64,000 nucleotides of DNA from a bacterium (GTDB lineage Bacteria > Hinthialibacterota > Hinthialibacteria > Hinthialibacterales > Hinthialibacteraceae), in assembly GCA_963662285.2 (NCBI GenBank), contig CAXXMV010000001.1, forward strand, positions 928,001-992,000, given 5' to 3'. Shown here piece by piece: positions 1 through 11,471 of this stretch. Under the pieces are notes generated by a model, which searched no databases, was not told the DNA's origin, and saw only the letters and a list, made by a program, of their open reading frames with translations. A program made the translations under genes and the position numbers. Every line of letters starts with the position of its first letter. Position 1 is the stretch's first letter.

Positions 1-1227
1 CCGGAAAATATTCTCCACAATAACGATAGCATTATCTACTAGCATACCCACAGCCAGAACCAACGAGAACAATACGACCATATTAAGCGTCAGTCCCATC
101 AATTTGAGCACTTGAAATGTAATAAGCATAGAAAATGGAATAGCCGACGCCACAATCAAGGCATTACGCAATCCCATAGCGCATAAAACAACTATCAGAA
201 CCAGAATCAATCCAGACAGGATGCTGTTTTCCAGGTCTGACACCATCTTACGTATATCGGTAGACATATCCATCACAATAGAAATATCCACGCCATTAGC
301 CGCTGAAGCCTTGTATTCTTTTATAAGTCTTTTAATTTCTTCAGATATTTCGATAATGTTTTCGCCGCTGCGCTTGACGATGTTTATCGATACTGACTCT
401 TTTTGGTTATAGCGGGATTTGGTTTTAGGCTCTTCGAAACCATCTTCCATCCTGGCGACATCGGTAATATAGATGGGATTATTCTCATGAGAATAAACAA
501 TCAGACTTTTAGCCTCAGAAGGATCCTTGAATTCACCGGGAATTTTAACCAGATAATTACTCGGCCCGATATCCATCTTTCCGCCGGGAGTGTTCAGATT
601 ATTGGAACGGACGGCGGTCATTAAATCTGTCACAGCAAGATTGTAAGAGGCGAGGCGTTCGGGCTGATAAGTGACGCGAATTTCCCGTTCAAGCCCTCCC
701 ATAACATTGGCTTCCAGAACGCCGGATACGCTTTCAAAATCATCCGCCATATCATCAGCCAGGTCTTTCAGACGCACCAAACCAACCGGACCCGAAACAA
801 CTACAGTCATTATAGGGAATTCAGCGAAATTGATTTCATCAACCATCGGATCATCTTCCAGATCAGCGGGGAGTTTAGATTTGGATTCATCCACCTTATC
901 CCGCACTTTTTGCAAGGCGGTATCGATATCAATGCCGGTGTTGAATTCACATACGATAGTCGAAGCGCCTTCCGATGAATAAGAACGCAGTTCTTTAATC
1001 TCACCAATAGTGGTCAGTTTTTGTTCAATTTCATTGGTAATAAGATTTTCAATATCCGATGGCGCTACGCCTTCATAAGTAGTTGTAACGATAATGTTCG
1101 GAATAGTAATATCGGGCGCCGATTCACGCGGTAGAGTAACATAGGCATACGAACCTCCTATGATAATCATAATGATAAGCACTAAAACAGTAGTAGCATG
1201 TCGTATACTAAATTCAGAAAGAGTCAT
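1..1227 (-). CDS. RND efflux permease (AcrB/AcrD/AcrF family), N-terminal part; runs off the window start
   Basis: Absent from the ORF track. Manual translation from ATG at 1227 gives MTLSEFSIRHATTVLVLIIMIIIGGSYAYVTLPRESAPDITIPNIIVTTTYEGVAPSDIENLITNEIEQKL, a classic AcrB-family start; it follows an MFP gene. Confidence 0.93.
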   Translation of the reverse strand, partial: MTLSEFSIRHATTVLVLIIMIIIGGSYAYVTLPRESAPDITIPNIIVTTTYEGVAPSDIENLITNEIEQKLTTIGEIKELRSYSSEGASTIVCEFNTGIDIDTALQKVRDKVDESKSKLPADLEDDPMVDEINFAEFPIMTVVVSGPVGLVRLKDLADDMADDFESVSGVLEANVMGGLEREIRVTYQPERLASYNLAVTDLMTAVRSNNLNTPGGKMDIGPSNYLVKIPGEFKDPSEAKSLIVYSHENNPIYITDVARMEDGFEEPKTKSRYNQKESVSINIVKRSGENIIEISEEIKRLIKEYKASAANGVDISIVMDMSTDIRKMVSDLENSILSGLILVLIVVLCAMGLRNALIVASAIPFSMLITFQVLKLMGLTLNMVVLFSLVLAVGMLVDNAIVIVENIFR

Positions 1228-1238
1228 CTAATTGCCTT

Positions 1239-2357
1239 TTAATTATTCTCGTTATTGATATTAAAAATTATGGAATTATCCATCACCTGGACTTGTTGAT
1301 CATCCACCAGGTCTTGCTGTCCAACAACCACAACATGTTCGTAGGGTTCGAGTCCATCAGTAATTTCAATCCGATCCTTCTTGAATACGCCAAGATTGAC
1401 TGGCCGACTATGCACGATTCCTTCTTTCTCAACAAAAACCATCATGCCGGATGCGCGTTTGATCAAAGCAATCAGGGGAACAATCAGGGCTTTATCGACG
1501 CGTTTAGTGGTTATTTCCGCCCGGACAATCATCCCTGGGCGAATGCGGTAATCAGGATTATCCATTACCAAGGTAGCCTCAAAAGTGTTAGTTTGAGCAT
1601 CGGCTTCAAAAGCCAGACGTTCAATCCTGGCTGGAAGAATTTCACCCAAAGACTCAAGATGAACCATAGATTCTTTTTCATGAGAGACTGCATCAGCATA
1701 AAGTTCCGGGACTCCAACCACAACCTTGACTTTATCCATTGAAAGCAGACGGGCTAATTGCGATCCTTCAGGAGCGAATTCGCCTTTTTCAACTTCTATA
1801 CGATCAATGATTCCATCCATGGGAGCAACGATATGACCAAGCGAAACATCTACTTGCAATGTACGCATTATTGCGCTGGCCCGGCGTTCCTGAGAAACAG
1901 CTTCGTCATACTCCTGCACCGTGACATCTCCGCGCTTGTTGAGGATTTTTTTACGTTCCAGGCTTTTTTGGGCCAAGTCGTGGGCCGCCTTGGCATCTTC
2001 GACGCGCGCAGTACGCGAGCGGAGATCGATTTGAAAGAGTTCCATTCCTTTCTTAACCCGGTCTCCTTCTCTGACGTATACCTCTTCAACGATTCCCGGA
2101 ATTCCCGCGCTGACATTGACGTCTTCATAGGCTTCAACCGTACCAGGCAGAAGAACTGTTTCCTGAAGCGGTTGAGGAATAATTTCTATTGACTGAACGC
2201 GCTTAAGCGGCGCTTTTTCCTGCATTGCCTCAATTGAGGCAGATTTCTGCGCCGAACTGGATGGAATCAGCGACATCACGTATAAAGCTCCTACAAAAAA
2301 AACGGGCAGCGCCAAATACATAATCGAGCGCAATAAATATTTCATAACAAATTTCAT
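1239..2357 (-). CDS. RND efflux periplasmic adaptor (membrane fusion protein)
   Basis: N-terminal TM; motifs GIVEEVYVREGDRVKKG, IVAPMDGII, RIRPGMIVRA; lies between TetR and the RND permease. Confidence 0.93.
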   Translation of the reverse strand: MKFVMKYLLRSIMYLALPVFFVGALYVMSLIPSSSAQKSASIEAMQEKAPLKRVQSIEIIPQPLQETVLLPGTVEAYEDVNVSAGIPGIVEEVYVREGDRVKKGMELFQIDLRSRTARVEDAKAAHDLAQKSLERKKILNKRGDVTVQEYDEAVSQERRASAIMRTLQVDVSLGHIVAPMDGIIDRIEVEKGEFAPEGSQLARLLSMDKVKVVVGVPELYADAVSHEKESMVHLESLGEILPARIERLAFEADAQTNTFEATLVMDNPDYRIRPGMIVRAEITTKRVDKALIVPLIALIKRASGMMVFVEKEGIVHSRPVNLGVFKKDRIEITDGLEPYEHVVVVGQQDLVDDQQVQVMDNSIIFNINNENN

Positions 2358-2962
2358 TATTTCTTTCCTCCAATACCATGCAATACAAAGTCAAGCAATA
2401 TTTCAACAAAGTTATCAGGAACAGATGTGGGATCAAGCATTAAAGTTTGCATATATACGCTGATTGAGCCTAAATAATGCATGATTAATTGTTCGATATT
2501 GCCTTCTCTTATGAATCCCTGATTAATTCCTTCTGTGAATAGCACCGCTAATAATTCAAAATGTTCTTTTTCAAATGCCATAATATCAACGTGCGGAATC
2601 GTGTTTCGCGGCGAAAACGCAGCATGATATATTAAACGAACCGTATCTTCATAATCTTTGAATAATAGAAAATATAAATTTGTTGTTTCCCGCAACCGCT
2701 CCATAAAGTCACCGGGATTACTCGTTATTTCGCTTAATCTATTAAAGAAAAAAGCGTAGGCCTCACGAATCAGAGTAACAAACATATCCTCTTTATTCTC
2801 AAAATAATAATATAGAACTGGTTTAGTGACTCCTGCTGCTTTTGCAATATCACGGATGCTGGTTCCATCAAAACCTTGTTTCGAGAAGAGGCGTGTGGCT
2901 GCATGCGCGATGTGTTCCCGTGTATCTTCTGATTTATGAGATATTTGCGTATTAATCGCCAT
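2357..2962 (-). CDS. TetR/AcrR family transcriptional regulator
   Basis: HTH motif LFSKQGFDGTSIRDIAKAAGVTKPVLYYYFENKEDMF; stop overlaps the MFP start. Confidence 0.95.
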   Translation of the reverse strand: MAINTQISHKSEDTREHIAHAATRLFSKQGFDGTSIRDIAKAAGVTKPVLYYYFENKEDMFVTLIREAYAFFFNRLSEITSNPGDFMERLRETTNLYFLLFKDYEDTVRLIYHAAFSPRNTIPHVDIMAFEKEHFELLAVLFTEGINQGFIREGNIEQLIMHYLGSISVYMQTLMLDPTSVPDNFVEILLDFVLHGIGGKK

Positions 2963-3011: not shown

Positions 3012-3167
3012 TATAATTACTTATACCCATTTCGCAAAGATTTTATTTCATTTTTTTTGCATTCTAGTAAAATTAACCATAAAATGTTTTGTTAATTCAC
3101 ACTCCTATAGCAATGAATGCATGATTGATCCTTCATAAAATTGGATTATTTGAGAAAAGAGATAAAA

Positions 3168-6100
3168 ATGAACTCTAGCAAAACTCGATTATTCGTGATT
3201 TTCGGCTTCTTCATGGTTGTTATATTGGGATTATCCTGGGTATCTAACATCCCCATGAAGAATCATCCGGTCGCGCTGCAGGTTAATATGCCTGCTGAGG
3301 AAAAGTCGAAATTGCTGACCATGGCAATTTCAAAGAATATATCAAATACTGTAACCGTTCCTGCAAAATTCGCAAAACCGGATTCGCCTGTCAGGAATCA
3401 ATCAATTACCACACCTGCTCCTCAACAGCAATCTCAGTCCATTGCAACCGGCCAAGAGATACTAAACAGAATCAACAAAATTCACAACACATCAAAAAGT
3501 AATCCCACAGATTCAAGACTTGGGCTTGCCCGTGGCAGAGGCCGCAAAGTCGCGAATCCCGAGCAGCAAAAAGCCATTGATGAATTGCTTGATAAATTAG
3601 GTGGTAACGCAACATTACAGATGGATAATGTTTCACGAACTCTTCGATATCTCGATGGCGATTTATCAAAGATTGTAAGTGACTCAAAAGCATATCAATC
3701 AGCCCACTCACAAAGCAATTATTCTGCGATGTCTATAGCGCTGGTAGATGAACTAAGATTGATTATGAACCTTAGTGAACCGCAAAAAGAATTCGTTACC
3801 AACCGCATAAAAGAAGACAACCTGGGGATGACGCATGTATTCTTGCAGCAGCAATATGATGGAATCCCGGTTTATGGAGCGCAAGTCGGCGTTCATTACG
3901 ACAAAAATAATAATCCAATTCAAGTATCCGGCGTTTATGCGCCAATGCCGGGAATGATAAGTGCTGTTAAATCATGTATTAATCCCCAAACCGCGCTGCA
4001 AAACGCCCGGCAGGATATTGGCAGCATTGGCAATGATTATGCATCTCCCAAGATCGAGCAAATGATCTACTGGGATATCGACCGGGTTCCCGTTCAAACA
4101 TATTTCATTGCCTTAACCCCGACTGTATTTGATCACTGGCATTATTTTATATCCGCAGAAACGGGAGAAATCGTTCACAAAAGCCGCCCGATATGTGCAG
4201 CAGCGGCAGTTGGACAATCCCCTGACCTGTCTGGACAAATCAGAGATGTTCATTGCTGGGAAGATGGAGGAGCTTTCGGCGCCATCGACACCACCAAGCC
4301 AATGTATCAAGCAAGTTCCCAACCGCCAGATATTAAAGCCACTAAAGGCGCCATAATCGTCCTTGATGCAGAAAACCAGATACTTGAAGAAGCCCAGTCA
4401 TTTACAATCGTCAATTCCAACAACAAGAATAACTGGGATCCCACAGCAGTCAGTGTATTGCATAATTACAGTTTAGTTGAAGATTATTACCGCCGCACAT
4501 TCAACCGCAACTCAATCGATGACAAAGGAATGAATATCCTGGCCATCATCCATGCCCAATTCAAAGGGCCAGATGGAAGCGTCTATAAGGATAATGCATT
4601 CTGGAATCCGGGAGCGCAATTAATGGTCTTCGGTGATGGAGAAGTGGATTTCCAAAACCTGCCTTCATCATTAGACGTAACTGGTCATGAGTTGACTCAT
4701 GGCGTGATCGACCATGAAGCCAAATTAATTTATGAAAACCAATCAGGCGCCCTCAACGAACACTTGGCGGATTTCTTCGGCGCCATGGTTGACCGGGATG
4801 AATGGTTACTGGGCGATGGCGTAACCAAAGGCAAGGAAGCCTTGCGCGATATGAAGAATCCCCATAATCCAAACATTCTCGCCGCACAGCCCCAAACCAT
4901 GACGGAATATAGGAACCTGCCCAATACTCCGCAAGGCGATAATGGCGGCGTTCATGTTAATTCCGGCATTCCCAATCACATGGCTTATTTATTAGCCGAA
5001 GGCCCCGATGGGATCGGGCGAGACAAAACCGAGAAAATACTTTACCGTGCACTTTCCGAATATATGACTCAAAGATCAACATTCATCGACTACCGTAGAG
5101 CAGCGATATCATCAACCCGTGACCTTCATGGCGAAAACAGCGCCGAAGAAGCATCGGTAAAAAAAGCATTTGATGCAGTGGAAATTTTCGACCAGGATGG
5201 AGGAGACTCTCCTAATCAACCTACGCCCGGACAAGCAACTGTAGGCAACGATGTTGCTCTGTTCCTGCTAGGTGATCTCAGCGCCGGAGTGGATCAGGTT
5301 CATGATGATCTGTTCTACCAGTTAGCCATCAATGTTAATGGTGAAAACCTGCTTGCTGCGCCGCGTTATGTAGTTAACACCAGACCAGCCGTTTCTGGTG
5401 ACGGACAATGGTTTTTGTATGTCGATACGACCAATAACCTCTATTGGACCGATGGCGCCTCTGAAGAAAAATGGACTGACAGTGGAATCATACGAAGCAT
5501 CGCCATGTCGAAAGATCAACGTTATATCGTATTCACATCAACCAGTTATGACAATTTCATCACTGTTATTGATACAGAAACCGGGGAAATTAATATCGCC
5601 GATCTTTATGTCACCCGAATGGATGGCGTAACGCAGGATTTGGATTTCGCGGATGTTATGACGTTTAATTTCCGTGGTGATTCTCTGATATACGATGCGG
5701 TTATGCAGATGAAACTGGATAATGGAGAAGAGTATCCTGTCTGGGGGATATATTGCCTACGTATGGTTGACCTAAATACTCAGCAGTTGGTCGCCCAAAC
5801 TCCCGGCGAGCAGATTGGCAATCCAACTATTGCTAATACCAACGACCATTTATTACTGGCGGATTATGTTGTATCCGAGGGAGATGATGAAGCGTTAGCC
5901 ATGGTCGCCATTGATTTTCTTGACATGAAAATGAGCGTCTTATTTGGACCAATGAACGATTTCGCTCATCCTACTTTCCGGGGTGATGACCAGAAAATAA
6001 TTTTCAGGGGATCAACCGGGGATAATAGTCAATTCGCGCTGATAGAAGGAGAATTACAAGATAACCAACAGGCCTTAATCGATACGTCAACACGGGTATT

Positions 6101-7142
6101 ATTCGAAGCCTTTGCGCCTATAACATATCCAGTCGGTTTCCGTATTGGAGAATATGTCAAACAGGAAGGTAAAATCAGCGTTCCTAAATCCATCGCAATC
6201 GGAGAAACTCCAGTTCTTACTCAGAACAGCCAAACAATTTCAATAGCGAATATTGGTAATAGTGATTTATCTTTGATTGAGATATCGATTGAAGAAGATA
6301 TAGATGGCGCCTTCTCTCATACCGGCATCAATCAGCAAATTTCCGCAGGTAAGAACATTTCATTTGATATTGTGTTTAATCCCAAGAAAACAGGTGCGGC
6401 ATCAGCTGCGCTTAAGATTAAATCCACTGATGCTTCACAACCGGAATCTATCATCAGCATCTCCGGCAATGGAACCGCCGCCAACACCCCTACGCCGACT
6501 GCGACTATTCCGGGTGGAGTAAGTACGCCAACGCCAGCCGCACCCACGCCAACGCCAATCAGCGGACTCGAACCGACGCCGCTTCCCGGTAGTGAAGATC
6601 AGCTGTCAGTTTATGAATTTGATAAAGATTCGCTATCCGACAACGGGTGGCTCGAAATTCCAGGGGGTTTCGGCGGCGCTGATCCAGGGATTCTTGACTT
6701 TATAACCTTTAATACGGGATTATTCTCTGCTTCTGCAGATGACAAGGGACTCTCACTTACAGTCGAACCAGGTCAAGTCGCTTTTCTAATGGCAAACACG
6801 CCGGTAAATACGCAAGACAATCCCATCCTTCTGCGGATGACAGTACGTTCTAACACCGCTAATGCTTCCATATTCCTGGTCGCTCTCAAGGGAGAATTAT
6901 CCAACAATACACTGGATGGATCATTAACATATAACAACCGCGTCAATGCATCCAGTTTCCTTGACAAAGATCAACGGTTAACGCTTATCTACGAGCCGGA
7001 TCAGGGAGGCAAAATAACCCCTGCCATTCAGGTGGCCGGCGTCGGCGATGAAACAACTACGGTTTATGTAGATAAATTAGAAATTTTCATGCTAAAACCC
7101 GATGGTTCATATAGCGGAATACTATTTCGTTCTTCACCATAA
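3168..7142 (+). CDS. Secreted M4 (thermolysin-like) metallopeptidase with propeptide, beta-propeller-like region, ASH/Ig-like domain, Pro/Thr linker and C-terminal domain
   Basis: NAFWNP, HELTH zinc motif, GALNEHLAD third ligand, DNGGVHVNSGIPNH; FTP propeptide (DNLGMTHVFLQQQYDGIPV); N-terminal TM; TPTPTATIP linker. ATG 3168 preferred over TTG 3141. Confidence 0.9.
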   Translation: MNSSKTRLFVIFGFFMVVILGLSWVSNIPMKNHPVALQVNMPAEEKSKLLTMAISKNISNTVTVPAKFAKPDSPVRNQSITTPAPQQQSQSIATGQEILNRINKIHNTSKSNPTDSRLGLARGRGRKVANPEQQKAIDELLDKLGGNATLQMDNVSRTLRYLDGDLSKIVSDSKAYQSAHSQSNYSAMSIALVDELRLIMNLSEPQKEFVTNRIKEDNLGMTHVFLQQQYDGIPVYGAQVGVHYDKNNNPIQVSGVYAPMPGMISAVKSCINPQTALQNARQDIGSIGNDYASPKIEQMIYWDIDRVPVQTYFIALTPTVFDHWHYFISAETGEIVHKSRPICAAAAVGQSPDLSGQIRDVHCWEDGGAFGAIDTTKPMYQASSQPPDIKATKGAIIVLDAENQILEEAQSFTIVNSNNKNNWDPTAVSVLHNYSLVEDYYRRTFNRNSIDDKGMNILAIIHAQFKGPDGSVYKDNAFWNPGAQLMVFGDGEVDFQNLPSSLDVTGHELTHGVIDHEAKLIYENQSGALNEHLADFFGAMVDRDEWLLGDGVTKGKEALRDMKNPHNPNILAAQPQTMTEYRNLPNTPQGDNGGVHVNSGIPNHMAYLLAEGPDGIGRDKTEKILYRALSEYMTQRSTFIDYRRAAISSTRDLHGENSAEEASVKKAFDAVEIFDQDGGDSPNQPTPGQATVGNDVALFLLGDLSAGVDQVHDDLFYQLAINVNGENLLAAPRYVVNTRPAVSGDGQWFLYVDTTNNLYWTDGASEEKWTDSGIIRSIAMSKDQRYIVFTSTSYDNFITVIDTETGEINIADLYVTRMDGVTQDLDFADVMTFNFRGDSLIYDAVMQMKLDNGEEYPVWGIYCLRMVDLNTQQLVAQTPGEQIGNPTIANTNDHLLLADYVVSEGDDEALAMVAIDFLDMKMSVLFGPMNDFAHPTFRGDDQKIIFRGSTGDNSQFALIEGELQDNQQALIDTSTRVLFEAFAPITYPVGFRIGEYVKQEGKISVPKSIAIGETPVLTQNSQTISIANIGNSDLSLIEISIEEDIDGAFSHTGINQQISAGKNISFDIVFNPKKTGAASAALKIKSTDASQPESIISISGNGTAANTPTPTATIPGGVSTPTPAAPTPTPISGLEPTPLPGSEDQLSVYEFDKDSLSDNGWLEIPGGFGGADPGILDFITFNTGLFSASADDKGLSLTVEPGQVAFLMANTPVNTQDNPILLRMTVRSNTANASIFLVALKGELSNNTLDGSLTYNNRVNASSFLDKDQRLTLIYEPDQGGKITPAIQVAGVGDETTTVYVDKLEIFMLKPDGSYSGILFRSSP

Positions 7143-7164: not shown

Positions 7165-7202
7165 AAAAAAGGCTCGCGGTTATTTTCCGCGAGCCTTTTT
7201 TT
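7165..7202. terminator. Bidirectional intrinsic terminator
   Basis: A6-GGCTCGCGG-N7-CCGCGAGCC-T7 between convergent genes. Confidence 0.85.
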
Positions 7203-7245: not shown

Positions 7246-8907
7246 CTAAAGAGAAGGCGAAATGCTATGAGTCTTCTTAATAGAAGGAATCGCCAGATAA
7301 TCGGGCAATACGCATAATTGCTCTCCATGTTGTCCTATGGCCCGGTATGCATTATTCAAGATTTCCAAGGCATCTTGAACTTTCCTTTGCGAGGGAAACA
7401 AAGCGTTATCCTTAAGACAGATTTCCCGCAATTTGTCTTTCGCGATGCATAGCCCATGATTGCAAAACAATTCATAAATAAAATAGAGTTGTTTCTTGGT
7501 AAAAGTGTCTGTTTCGTAATCGAGTACTTCTTTCAAAGGATTCAACGCAATTCTACGGTCTTGCGCAGAAAGATTATTCTGTTTTTTAACGACATCAGAT
7601 TCCTCTTGCGTAAGAGCCTTGCGCAGATCATTAACAAAATCCTTGGTAACCAGCGTTCTTTTACTTAATTTCTGTCGAGATAAACCAAGTTCCAGCGCGC
7701 GTCGCAGAACATTTGGTTTAACCTCAAATCCCCAATGGTTGCGATAGAACTGTTTATAATTTTCTTTCAGAAAATTTAACGTTCTCTTTAGATGTTGGAT
7801 AGAATGATTCTTCCGCGTCCGGGCGTAAGATTCCGCAATTCGATGACTTATGCCTTCTTCTTTGGTCAAATACTGAGATATGGATAATTCGGCCCGGCTC
7901 TGGGTCTGTCCACGCTTGCGAAGCAACTTCCTGATAGTCCGTTTCCCTCCCATAAGGTCAGAAATGGCCAGTTTCCCATTTGCTAACCGCAGAAGGTTCT
8001 TCATGGTCTGATAGGTTGCCCGTGCTGAAATGTATTCAATTTGTTCTTGAGTAGCGCCCAGTTTCTTAAGCAATTCACGGCGGCGTTGAAAATCGGACGA
8101 CCGTTGGTTTGAGCGCTGCAAATGATCCCGCAGCCGTGAATAATTGGCTTTCAATCTATTCGGTTCAACGCATTTCAATTCACTAAGCAGAATATCGGTT
8201 TTCTTTTTCAGCATATCCAAACTGGATTGACTAACCAGAAATTCCAAATCCGCTTCCGTAAACTGAGGAATAACTCTCCCGGAATCAGCCAGGTTCTCTA
8301 AAAACTCATACTTATTCCGTCGATCATAGGGCCACAGATTACCGCGTTTGGCGCGGGCGCTGGAACGAGTTCTCACTTTAACCGCCGATAGTTGTAATTC
8401 CGGCGTATGAATAAACGAGCCAACTTCCCGGTATATCTCAAGTTTTTTACTAAAGCGATTATAAGATTTTGGAGTATCAAACTGATCCGCCATATTAAAT
8501 TCTTTAGCAATCTCCAAGATTCCTTCTTTTCCCCGTGCTGAAATGCCCTCTAAGTAAGATAGATGCTCTTGAAGCAGCCAATCAGCCAGATATTGACGAA
8601 TATTACGACCTGCTAGTCTAATAGATTCATGCGAAGCAGGACGTTCTTTGATTAATAATTCTTCAATTTCAAATACAGTATCCAAGAAAGATTTTGCATC
8701 AGAATCTTCTCTAATCGGTTGATCCAATTCTAAGTTAGTATTGGAAAAATATTGTTCAACAAATGCTTTTGACTTGGCGTATGAATCAAGTCGTTCATCT
8801 GCGATGGTTATGATTGCCTGGCGAATTCCAACACGGGCCATTTGCCAAGGAGTAGTATCAAACCCAAAAGTAAGCGGAAATTGTGAAATTGTACTAAACG
8901 TATTCAT
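7246..8907 (-). CDS. Hypothetical basic helical protein, putative nucleic-acid binding (see findings)
   Basis: Long ORF (571 aa from 8961); probable start ATG 8907 with GGAGG at 8915-8919; K/R-rich; no signal peptide or TM. Confidence 0.8.
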   Translation of the reverse strand: MNTFSTISQFPLTFGFDTTPWQMARVGIRQAIITIADERLDSYAKSKAFVEQYFSNTNLELDQPIREDSDAKSFLDTVFEIEELLIKERPASHESIRLAGRNIRQYLADWLLQEHLSYLEGISARGKEGILEIAKEFNMADQFDTPKSYNRFSKKLEIYREVGSFIHTPELQLSAVKVRTRSSARAKRGNLWPYDRRNKYEFLENLADSGRVIPQFTEADLEFLVSQSSLDMLKKKTDILLSELKCVEPNRLKANYSRLRDHLQRSNQRSSDFQRRRELLKKLGATQEQIEYISARATYQTMKNLLRLANGKLAISDLMGGKRTIRKLLRKRGQTQSRAELSISQYLTKEEGISHRIAESYARTRKNHSIQHLKRTLNFLKENYKQFYRNHWGFEVKPNVLRRALELGLSRQKLSKRTLVTKDFVNDLRKALTQEESDVVKKQNNLSAQDRRIALNPLKEVLDYETDTFTKKQLYFIYELFCNHGLCIAKDKLREICLKDNALFPSQRKVQDALEILNNAYRAIGQHGEQLCVLPDYLAIPSIKKTHSISPSL

Positions 8908-9122
8908 GGTAAAACCTCCAAGGGACAAAATCCACATCCTATACATGTTATCATGACTCATTATATCATCATTATAGCCGGTTTGTCAAGAAAAAAAACA
9001 AGAATTCCAGTATTTTTTTCAGCAATAACAACAAGGCAGGCAGACATCTATATTATTTATATATAAATACAACAATATCAGCATATTAAGAAATTAAGTA
9101 CTCTGGAATTTGCATTGTCAAC

Positions 9123-9165
9123 AAAAAAAATCCCTCGTTTTTATTCTAAACGAGGGATTTTTTTT
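9123..9165. terminator. Intrinsic terminator (bidirectional-type) downstream of the FG-GAP gene
   Basis: A8-TCCCTCGTTT-N7-AAACGAGGGA-T8. Confidence 0.8.
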
Positions 9166-9194: not shown

Positions 9195-9310
9195 CTAGAG
9201 CGATTATCAAAATTATGTTCGTTTATTATCACCTTTGGTCTTCATAGAAGCCAATCTTTTCTGGCTTCTATGAATCGCCAATCAGAATATTATTATGAAA
9301 ACTACTCTAG
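9195..9310 (-). mobile_element. Miniature inverted-repeat element (MITE-like), copy 1
   Basis: CTAGAGCGATTATCAAAAT...ATTATGAAAACTACTCTAG; colinear with 22527-22640 and 63632-63746; internal perfect 13-bp hairpin. Confidence 0.75.
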
Positions 9311-10647
9311 AACATTTCCCAATGCAAAACGTCTGTTCCCGCATTATTAAAGAAAACGTATACCCGCCCGTTTAGAGCATTGGAAGCGTCTCCAGAATCA
9401 ATAATTGAGCAGAGGACGGCAACATCGGTATCGCCATCACCATCAAAATCATCCTTCACGGCATAGCGCGGCTCCTCTTCCAGCATAAAAGAGGCTGTTT
9501 CAGTGAATTCAGCATTGCCATTATTCTCGAATATCTTCAAACTTGCTTCGAGTCTGTTAGCGCCACCGACATTAACGATTTCCTGGACAGTTGTGATGTA
9601 ATCAACATCGCCGTCCATATCATAATCATCCACCAATACGCTGAAGGCCATACCGGGCGCTGGAATCGAAACTAAAGGACTAAATCGGTCGCCTTTGTTT
9701 TCAAAGATATTTATTGATGCATTGGTTCCTAAAAAGGAGGCCAGGCCATCCATGTCGCCAACATTGGATACGGCTATATCTTCCAAGCCATCGCTGTTGA
9801 AATCTCCCTTATCCAGGCTCCAAGGGAAGAAATTGATATCCAGGGGCATGTATTCTGCAAGTTTGTCACCTGTTCCATTAAAGATGGAGATATTCATATA
9901 GGTGTATATCAAATTGAAACTGGAATCCAAATCAGTTGCTCCCTGGTTAACGCCGACGATATCTTTATTGCCATCCTGATTATAATCGAACGCCAAAAAA
10001 TCGACTAAACTTCCATCCGTATATTTAGGTAAATTAGAAGAGAACAATCCATGCCCCCGGTTATCGAATGAGTATATGCCAGCTTCATAGACATTTAAGG
10101 TTAATTTGACTTCGTCTAATTTAAGCTCACCGTTATTACTCACAATAACTTCATTATCACCATCTCCGTCTAAATCACTTATTTTCAATGCCGATGGAAT
10201 GCCTGATATGGGCTGGAATATCTGTATATAGCTGCCATCCTCTTCTGAATAGAGAAAAGCAATACCAGATTCAGCAGGGGTGCCCAATTGCGCACGGGTC
10301 AGATTTTGCACAAAAGCAACGGCCAGATCGAGGTTCCCCGAGCCATCCAGGTCGCCAATGGTTAGCGCTACGGGATGTTTTCTATCTGATTCCAGAGGCA
10401 AATTAACAATATTGTTAAAATTACCGTTTCCATCGTTAAAAGCCAATGTAATTGAATGGCTGAAAATGTTTGATACAGCTATATCAACATCGCCATCGCC
10501 GTCCAGGTCACCTGAATCGATAGTGCTGGAACGTAAACCTGTCCCGAAAATTGCTCCTTGTTCAAAAGAAATATCGGCGTAAAGATTCGCCGGAACGCAA
10601 AGAACCAAACCTAACACCATGATATAACATACTCTTTTCAATAACAT
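9307..10647 (-). CDS. Secreted FG-GAP/VCBS-repeat beta-propeller protein
   Basis: Signal peptide; seven DxDGDGDxD-type repeats (GDLDGDGDVDIAV, GDFNSDGLEDIAV, DDFDGDGDTDVAV). Confidence 0.88.
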   Translation of the reverse strand: MLLKRVCYIMVLGLVLCVPANLYADISFEQGAIFGTGLRSSTIDSGDLDGDGDVDIAVSNIFSHSITLAFNDGNGNFNNIVNLPLESDRKHPVALTIGDLDGSGNLDLAVAFVQNLTRAQLGTPAESGIAFLYSEEDGSYIQIFQPISGIPSALKISDLDGDGDNEVIVSNNGELKLDEVKLTLNVYEAGIYSFDNRGHGLFSSNLPKYTDGSLVDFLAFDYNQDGNKDIVGVNQGATDLDSSFNLIYTYMNISIFNGTGDKLAEYMPLDINFFPWSLDKGDFNSDGLEDIAVSNVGDMDGLASFLGTNASINIFENKGDRFSPLVSIPAPGMAFSVLVDDYDMDGDVDYITTVQEIVNVGGANRLEASLKIFENNGNAEFTETASFMLEEEPRYAVKDDFDGDGDTDVAVLCSIIDSGDASNALNGRVYVFFNNAGTDVLHWEMF

Positions 10648-10919: not shown

Positions 10920-11471
10920 TTGAAGACAAAGGCATTCACATTGATCGAATTGTTGATCGTTGTAGCGATTATCGGGATTCTCGCGTTAATCGTAATGCCT
11001 AATTTTTTAAACGCTCAGATTAAAGCCAAAGTAGCCCGCAGCCAGGCTGATATTCGCACTATCTCTAATGCAATCATGGCGTATAGGATCGATAATAACA
11101 ATATCCCCCCCATTCCACGCTCAAATGGCACATCGACCATAATCCGTCCCATGCACTTATCGGTGCTGTTTAATTTAACCACGCCCATCAACTACATCTC
11201 CATCGGGTCGCTCAAAAGCCCGTTCTCTGTATATCATGGTTATTGGTTTTACAATTGGGATTGGTTCGTTGAAGAATCCGGCTCGCCGCCCATCTGGTTT
11301 TGGAATAGCACGGAACATCCTGAGCAAACATTATGGATGGTATCCACGCTGGGACCGAATCGCACTGAATTCCCTTATGATACGGTCAATGACAGCATCA
11401 TCCTGTGGTATGATTATCAACCAACCAACGGAATGAGAAGCCGGGGTCTCATCCAAACCCACGGCAAGTAA
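10920..11471 (+). CDS. Prepilin-type N-terminal cleavage/methylation protein (type IV pilin/GspG-like)
   Basis: KAFTLIELLIVVAIIGILALIVMPNFLNAQIKAKVAR; TTG start. Confidence 0.88.
   Translation: MKTKAFTLIELLIVVAIIGILALIVMPNFLNAQIKAKVARSQADIRTISNAIMAYRIDNNNIPPIPRSNGTSTIIRPMHLSVLFNLTTPINYISIGSLKSPFSVYHGYWFYNWDWFVEESGSPPIWFWNSTEHPEQTLWMVSTLGPNRTEFPYDTVNDSIILWYDYQPTNGMRSRGLIQTHGK

Follow-up and report, generated by a model that had tools for sequence, protein, structure and literature searches.

The gene on the minus strand at 7246-8907 of the window (the whole 64,000-nucleotide stretch of DNA that was analysed) raises the question of what is done by a long, basic protein that resembles nothing in the standard family collections. 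The original prediction was of a composite transcription factor: its N-terminus, likened to sigma70 region 2, would sit on the clamp helices of RNA polymerase, mTERF-like repeats would read nucleic acid and a C-terminal winged helix would add DNA contacts. Our analysis favours a different reading, to which we assign a probability of about one half: a lineage-specific, nucleic-acid-binding chromosome or transcription factor, expressed from a strong and probably Rrf2-repressed promoter. The features on which the argument draws are collected in Table 1.

Table 1. Features of the long gene, of its protein and of its short paralogs (window positions, except where contigs C6 and C8 of the same genome are named).
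Feature	Position	Strand	Remarks
Coding sequence (P0001)	7246..8907	-	553 aa plus stop; 41 homologs; start backed by ortholog N-termini
Residues 1-140, acidic fast-evolving helical bundle	8488..8907	-	net charge -7; median identity 35%
Residues 141-335, basic conserved all-alpha middle	7903..8487	-	long form only; charge +19; median identity 72%
Residues 336-450, basic helical part of C-terminal module	7558..7902	-	common to short paralogs; charge +10; identity 62%
Residues 451-541, winged helix	7285..7557	-	best conserved part; net charge 0; median identity 77%
Ribosome-binding site	8915..8919	-	7 nt before ATG; read directly from the sequence
Candidate repressor operator, 27-nt imperfect palindrome	8944..8970	-	overlaps the -10 and the expected transcription start
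Sigma-70-type promoter	8960..8989	-	both hexamers perfect (12/12); 18-nt spacer; TG before the -10
A-rich, UP-element-like tract upstream of the -35	8990..9034	-	by eye, unscored; in about 8/14 anchored orthologous promoters
Bidirectional intrinsic terminator	7165..7201	.	15-bp stem; T runs on both strands; common to the convergent M4 protease gene
Terminator of the upstream FG-GAP gene	9123..9165	.	insulates the long-gene promoter
Short copies in the same genome	C6:113241-113951 and C8:217414-218058

The longest minus-strand reading frame spans 7246-8961. Within it, the ATG at 8907 was taken as the likely start, because a Shine-Dalgarno-like purine run lies 7 nucleotides upstream and the N-termini of the orthologs align there. 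The product was described at the outset as soluble and rich in lysine and arginine, and it is: 93 of the 553 residues are K or R, and the pI is 9.6. The description of a stand-alone gene with a terminator on each side was likewise confirmed. One terminator (7165-7201) separates the gene from a convergent neighbour encoding a 1333-residue M4-type protease, another lies upstream (9123-9165), and the gene has a promoter of its own (8989-8960); the gene is monocistronic. In 15 of 16 orthologs, a promoter with at least 11 of 12 consensus matches precedes the start codon by 44-87 nucleotides. Perfect consensus promoters number 13 in the 7.3-Mb genome, compared with 6.3 expected from its composition. 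The perfect promoter was considered as a clue to function and dropped, the 13 sites preceding unrelated genes. A 176-nucleotide contig from a sediment metatranscriptomic library matched 8103-8278 with two mismatches, a weak hint of transcription given that DNA carry-over is possible. Sequencing runs other than the probable source sample contained small shares of the gene only.

Searches of family collections bore out the orphan status of the protein. When the long protein and its paralogs were run against Pfam, NCBIfam, PADLOC and PHROGs, all matches were at noise level; sequence searches of the PDB, whether by the single protein or by any of three profiles, returned nothing, and the ESM Atlas yielded no usable match for residues 140-450 or for the whole protein. 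A word-indexed search did identify 41 homologs of about 550 residues with 43-85% identity, which, where they carry a name, are called 'hypothetical protein' and come from Omnitrophota or Omnitrophica MAGs, from 'bacterium' or from Candidatus Hinthialibacter antarcticus. Literature on the Candidatus Hinthialibacter lineage includes PMC9324843. Only 17 proteins emerged when 1.84 billion cluster representatives were searched in full with HMMER. Several of these, 200-250 residues long, matched residues ~340-540 alone, and one (P0044; 587 residues, 29% identity) is a singleton without relatives of its own.

The family profile was also run on whole genomes of the phylum. It was positive in 26 of 35 genomes, which are all those of families f1-f3, and in none of the nine genomes of the sister families f4-f6. 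The long form was present in 25 of the 26, the exception being a genome that is 82% complete (G012). Most genomes of f1-f3 have three matches, one long and two short, the short paralogs being stand-alone proteins of 230-250 residues that match the C-terminal ~200 residues of the long form. Profile-profile alignment of this C-terminal module between long and short forms gave a probability of 99.9% (hhalign, E 1e-36). A search with the module profile for longer fused forms recovered the long family only, with no further fusion architecture. The family thus comes in two architectures, both restricted to one order of Hinthialibacter-like MAGs. Rfam searches of the long-gene locus and of the locus of one short paralog (short A) returned sub-threshold, terminator-like matches only.

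The protein divides into segments that differ in charge and conservation (Table 1), and these differences hold across the family. Among the 41 homologs the middle region, residues 141-335, has a median charge of +17 (range +4 to +22), and residues 1-140 have a median charge of -5. The middle region contains many invariant residues, largely R, K, S, T, N, Q and G at helix starts, which is the pattern expected of contacts to a phosphate backbone. AlphaFold2 predicted nearly all of the protein to be helical when the whole was modelled with the 41-sequence alignment (mean pLDDT 87, pTM 0.56); residues 140-450, modelled alone with 22 sequences derived from the loci, had a similar local score (pLDDT 86, pTM 0.44). 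In Foldseek searches, neither the PDB nor BFVD yielded a match at E ≤0.001. For the model of residues 140-450 the best Foldseek E-value was 0.2, and its fold matches all fell under the tool's noise level of 7-8; the same was true of residues 141-335, for which no fold match rose above noise. Prediction of a complex between two copies of residues 336-545 scored 0.00, a result that counts neither for nor against dimerization.

The sigma70-like N-terminus proposed for the protein turned out to consist of literal motif strings only, without a signal from any sigma HMM or profile, in a region that is acidic and the least conserved of all. The motifs sit in residues 1-140, where median identity among the homologs is 35%, as against 62-77% elsewhere. 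W21 and Y43 are nearly invariant in this segment and D68 and A71 invariant, and only these. Pfam found no sigma family in P0001 at E-values up to 10, and no Sigma70 family was among the 25 of 40 matched families listed for the 41 members at E-values up to 1. As a positive control, the Sigma70_r2 model recovers 35 genes from this same genome. When the family alignment was compared by hhalign with seven ECF and five large sigma factors of the same genome, the probability was 0.3%, whereas ECF against large sigma factors gave 95%, in a comparison whose small profiles limit its sensitivity. Foldseek placed two sigma-70 chains at E ~1 against the whole model, within which residues 1-140 were searched, and in the VIA lists for the whole model sigma chains, like mTERF and TALE chains, lay outside the top 50. 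The acidic and variable segment, together with these Pfam and hhalign results, argues against the RNA-polymerase-binding sigma region-2 module that had been proposed.

A similar outcome was obtained for the four degenerate repeats, none of which was significant. Seven segments were compared in all 21 pairs, one trivial overlap match being set aside. The best profile-profile pair, about 141-171 against 222-252, corresponds to the first and second repeats of the original prediction; its E-value of 0.018 is not significant because 21 tests were made. Self-alignment of residues 140-450 with alternative alignments recovered the same pair only (E 0.17, probability 0.4%). The mTERF family (PF02536) was not matched by P0001 at E-values up to 10, and at E-values up to 1 it was absent from the 25 of 40 matched families listed for the 41 members. 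TALE, mTERF and designed helical repeats dominate the top of the non-significant Foldseek lists, the mTERF and TALE matches being at noise level (E 0.2-1, TM ≤0.22). Judged from these profile and model comparisons, the long protein appears to be neither a sigma factor nor an mTERF protein.

The C-terminal winged helix, in contrast to these two modules, stood up. In the AlphaFold2 model, residues 468-533 form the helix-strand-helix-helix-hairpin that had been anticipated, and they superpose on solved winged helices. The elements follow the H1-S1-H2-H3-S2-S3 topology (helix 468-484, strand 487-489, helices 490-499 and 507-520, strands 524-527 and 530-533), with block-mean pLDDT values of 82-94. 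The matches of lowest rmsd are protein-binding domains, namely the Rpa2 winged helix (1.6-1.8 Å), MCM and the cullin WHB domain; no winged-helix subfamily could be named, because the matches differ by no more than about 1 Z unit. In the third helix the conserved positions, in long and short forms alike, are mainly hydrophobic or acidic. A neutral winged helix of this kind suits contact with protein as well as it suits contact with DNA. The family is new, and of its three regions only the winged helix is assignable to a known fold.

The palindrome at the promoter supplied a clue to regulation. It lies directly after the -10 in 10 of 15 orthologs, its sequence kept through the centre, and these ten sites were made into a weight matrix. 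When the 7.3-Mb genome was scanned, the gene's own site scored 29.5, and the best other site (22.8, at C6:243244) fell in the promoter or leader of a 150-residue gene, ending 5 nucleotides before its start codon. The product of that gene is an Rrf2-family regulator (PF02082, E 6e-36), which in NCBIfam matched the superfamily model only and scored below every equivalog cut-off. It has cysteines at positions 92, 99 and 105, which we take to resemble the cluster ligands of IscR and NsrR. The following gene in the same genome encodes a 558-residue sigma factor with regions 1.2, 2, 3 and 4; it scores below the NCBIfam cut-off for RpoD, which another gene, of 587 residues, passes. Twelve Rrf2 loci were found, and in all 11 that have downstream sequence the Rrf2 gene is followed by a co-directional reading frame of at least 425 residues, confirmed as sigma-70 by Pfam in each of the five loci checked. 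A second matrix hit near a sigma gene (C8:548554) was dropped; it lies inside a 532-residue reading frame and not in a promoter.

The score of the site at the Rrf2 gene is not significant by itself, because the best scores in shuffled genomes (20.0-22.6) come about as high as its 22.8. Co-occurrence was the more telling measure. An Rrf2 ortholog is present in 12 of the 26 genomes of the order, and the promoter of the long gene could be read in 21 genomes. The palindrome was found in 12 of these, with scores of 23.2-32.5 and within 8 nucleotides after the -10 wherever a -10 was found; ten of the 12 promoters had gone into the matrix and two had not. Palindrome and Rrf2 ortholog occurred together in 11 genomes, the palindrome alone in one, Rrf2 alone in none, and neither in nine. 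In those nine, all lacking an Rrf2 ortholog, the best matrix scores were -0.4 to 11.1. Half of the 12 Rrf2 promoters scored 16.7-23.5 at 5-14 nucleotides before the start codon; the other six reached 0.9-8.3 only. The genomes are kin, and a quick tree left the backbone of f1 unresolved, so that no more than one or two events may underlie the co-occurrence. The comparative evidence for a link to Rrf2 is stronger than the matrix score, and the promoter of the long gene appears to share an operator with the operon for Rrf2 and the group-2 sigma factor.

The surroundings of the genes were compared at 22 long-gene loci, including that in the window, and at 22 loci of the short paralogs. No co-transcribed gene or operon partner of the long form was found in its 22 loci, and no ribosomal or RNA-processing gene context. 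An FG-GAP gene lies upstream in 7 of the 22, a divergent pilin-like gene in 9, and a divergent STAS gene of about 115 residues, Pfam-confirmed for one, directly upstream in 8. The copy in the window is without a divergent STAS neighbour, and its genome contains 22 STAS matches. Short paralog B is preceded in 9 of 9 loci by an uncharacterized protein of about 125 residues, with a divergent radical-SAM gene, and short paralog A has as neighbours, in 5 of 22 loci, RNase III, a radical-SAM gene and a gene for a 230-residue protein that matches STAS below threshold. The ECF sigma and FecR genes that follow short B were considered as partners; found in this genome only and absent from the 8 other loci, they were treated as a chance arrangement.

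Taken together, these results suggest the following reading. As the long member of an orphan family with three paralogs, the protein would bind nucleic acid, most likely DNA, through its basic middle and C-terminal helical regions, with the neutral winged helix probably serving as a structural or protein-contact domain. Its role would be that of a factor associated with the chromosome or with transcription, and not that of a sigma factor. The three-cysteine Rrf2-family regulator may repress the long gene in about half of the lineage. With a similar palindrome at the operon that encodes this regulator and a group-2, RpoD-like sigma factor, the long protein and the alternative sigma factor would be induced together. 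For nucleic-acid binding, the charge and the fold class are only suggestive.

Several other explanations draw on the same observations. The architecture proposed originally keeps a real winged helix, a list of non-significant Foldseek matches headed by TALE, mTERF and designed repeats, the two sigma-70 chains at E ~1, and a long gene that is seemingly co-regulated with a group-2 sigma operon. Set against an acidic N-terminus conserved less well than any other part, the lack of any significant repeat, the absence of Sigma70 and mTERF from the Pfam families listed for the members, and an hhalign probability far below that of the control, this model appears largely refuted at the sequence level, and we consider it very improbable. 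A related but separate idea is that the family constitutes a new class of cofactor of the transcription apparatus, in which the C-terminal module docks on RNA polymerase or on the group-2 sigma factor, the long form adds a basic DNA-gripping region, and release from Rrf2 repression co-induces it with the sigma factor. In its full form the module would be a sigma-2/TFIIB-like helical bundle plus winged helix, present three times per genome, the repressor would be Fe-S-sensing, and STAS partner-switching proteins, beside two of the three paralogs in some genomes, would possibly tune the system. We regard this combination, taken jointly, as a long shot. The protein could instead be a scaffold or adaptor, its winged helix and C-terminal module joining paralogs or STAS partners and its basic region being incidental. 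The protein-binding character of the closest winged-helix matches and the zero net charge of the domain fit such a role, as do the divergent STAS gene at 8 of 22 long-gene loci, the weak STAS protein beside short A at 5 of 22 and the count of only 22 STAS matches in the genome. However, DNA-binding and protein-binding types of winged helix are tied within about 1 Z unit, the STAS neighbour is missing from the window and from most loci, and a middle-region charge kept at +17 is hard to explain without a polyanionic ligand; we consider a scaffold unlikely.

RNA binding is a further alternative. The long protein could be, for example, a ribosome-biogenesis factor or RNA chaperone that operates in the manner of mTERF, PPR or PUF-type proteins, with the palindrome acting as a 5'-leader hairpin for autogenous control. 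It is strongly basic, is made of helical-hairpin units and has mTERF4 and mitoribosome assembly factors among its weak fold matches, and the palindrome would fall at the 5' end of the transcript. Genes of the translation apparatus typically have a strong constitutive-type promoter with an A-rich tract upstream, and the promoter of the long gene is of that type. The mTERF4 and mitoribosome matches are nevertheless at noise level, the loci of the long form offer no ribosomal or RNA-processing context, and sequence conservation of the palindrome runs through its centre, where hairpin pairing would be impossible. The promoter of the Rrf2 regulator, a DNA-binding protein with which the palindrome co-occurs, moreover has a similar element. 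An RNA-binding role is in our estimate distinctly unlikely. If the palindrome is an operator, it might be the protein's own, bound by the winged helix as a dimer, with its likeness to the Rrf2 promoter due to cross-regulation or chance. Winged-helix regulators commonly autoregulate, the palindrome accompanies the long gene in 12 of 21 genomes, always in the same position immediately after the -10, and shuffled genomes score as high as the Rrf2 site. Nine genomes, however, have the long gene without the palindrome, and those same nine are without an Rrf2 ortholog; in addition, 6 of 12 Rrf2 promoters have a matrix hit at the same distance from the start codon. Autoregulation is in our estimate improbable, and a nucleic-acid-binding factor under Rrf2 repression remains our preferred reading.

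Should that reading be correct, an uncultured phylum would contain an order-wide, strongly expressed family of three basic winged-helix proteins without relatives elsewhere, wired to a switch of Rrf2 and alternative sigma factor and adding to chromosome or transcription control a layer peculiar to the lineage. The basic middle region of 195 residues, without a recognizable solved fold, is also a candidate for structure determination.

Compared with known systems, the long protein resembles mTERF and TALE binders in being all-alpha, basic and built of helix-turn-helix-like hairpins, and differs from them in having no detectable tandem repeat, the mTERF repeats being of about 30 residues. Relative to the sigma-70 family, it has a winged helix where region 4 would be, and sigma region 2 is the opposite of residues 1-140 in charge and conservation. 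The closest folds to the winged helix are the DNA-binding domain of Fur/Zur/PerR, the Rpa2, ORC/Cdc6 and cullin (WHB) winged helices and TFIIE, with none of which it shares sequence similarity; the domain of the long protein is electrically neutral and caps a 450-residue helical protein without a known fold. The proposed regulatory arrangement, as read from sequence, would be most like that of the IscR and NsrR regulons, in which an AT-rich palindrome of about 25 bp covers the -10 and the transcription start and a similar element lies at the promoter of the regulator. Unlike in those regulons, the operon partner of the Rrf2 regulator is a group-2 sigma factor and not a set of genes for Fe-S assembly or NO detoxification.

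The palindrome that follows the -10 element of the long gene resembles one elsewhere in the same genome, which lies between the promoter and the start codon of an operon for an Rrf2-family regulator and a group-2 sigma factor. The regulator has 150 aa, including three cysteines, and the sigma factor is an RpoD-like protein of 558 aa. Among relatives, the Rrf2 gene is followed at every locus with downstream sequence (11/11) by an ORF in the same direction that is 425 aa or longer, and this ORF was a sigma factor by Pfam in all five loci checked. At loci L003, L004 and L006, the orthologs of the long gene are without the palindrome, and the Rrf2 gene is missing as well. By eye, and unscored, the 5' leaders of these orthologs seem to carry other inverted repeats between the -10 element and the start codon.

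Genes surrounding the long gene and its orthologs were also compared. In the window, the long gene converges on the M4 gene and shares a single terminator with it; the M4 product combines a thermolysin propeptide, catalytic and helical domains with Ig-like domains. In 7 of 22 loci, the FG-GAP and pilin-like genes are found in synteny with the long gene. The HlyD-type adaptor and AcrB-type pump genes occur again at L007, L019 and L021, three loci besides the window, within 6 kb of the ortholog. A divergent gene for a STAS-domain protein of the anti-sigma-antagonist type adjoins the long gene in 8/22 loci; no STAS-domain neighbour of the long gene is present in the window.

Antisense ORFs of 70-270 aa recur within the orthologs, and 22 of them, from 15 loci, form one cluster. 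Most likely they are not genes in their own right but shadow frames within a conserved gene.

Features in the window, elsewhere in the same genome (contigs C6 and C8) and at ortholog loci (L, locus handle)
Feature	Position	Strand	Loci
TetR regulator, HlyD-type adaptor, AcrB-type pump	window 1-2962	-	
M4 (thermolysin) protease-type protein, 1333 aa, secreted-type	window 3141-7142	+	
Antisense ORF examples inside long gene	window 7456-7668, 8741-8956	+	
FG-GAP repeat protein	window 9307-10647	-	
Protein with type IV pilin-like N-terminal methylation motif, divergent from FG-GAP gene	window 10920-11471	+	
Rrf2-family regulator and group-2 sigma operon	C6:240943-243270 (outside window)		L028, L057, L058
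Two stand-alone C-terminal-module paralogs (226 and 239 aa)	C6:113241-113951, C8:217414-218058		L023, L024
Divergent STAS gene, ~115 aa	~350-450 nt upstream of ortholog		L005, L006, L007, L008, L011, L012, L014, L021

The short paralogs, stand-alone copies of the C-terminal module of the long protein, have neighbours of their own. Upstream of short paralog A in the genome under study lie ~1.5 kb without an ORF of at least 70 aa, except for one 72-aa frame. A 230-aa protein with a weak STAS match is encoded next to short paralog A in five loci, and a gene for a protein of ~125 aa precedes short paralog B in 9/9 loci.
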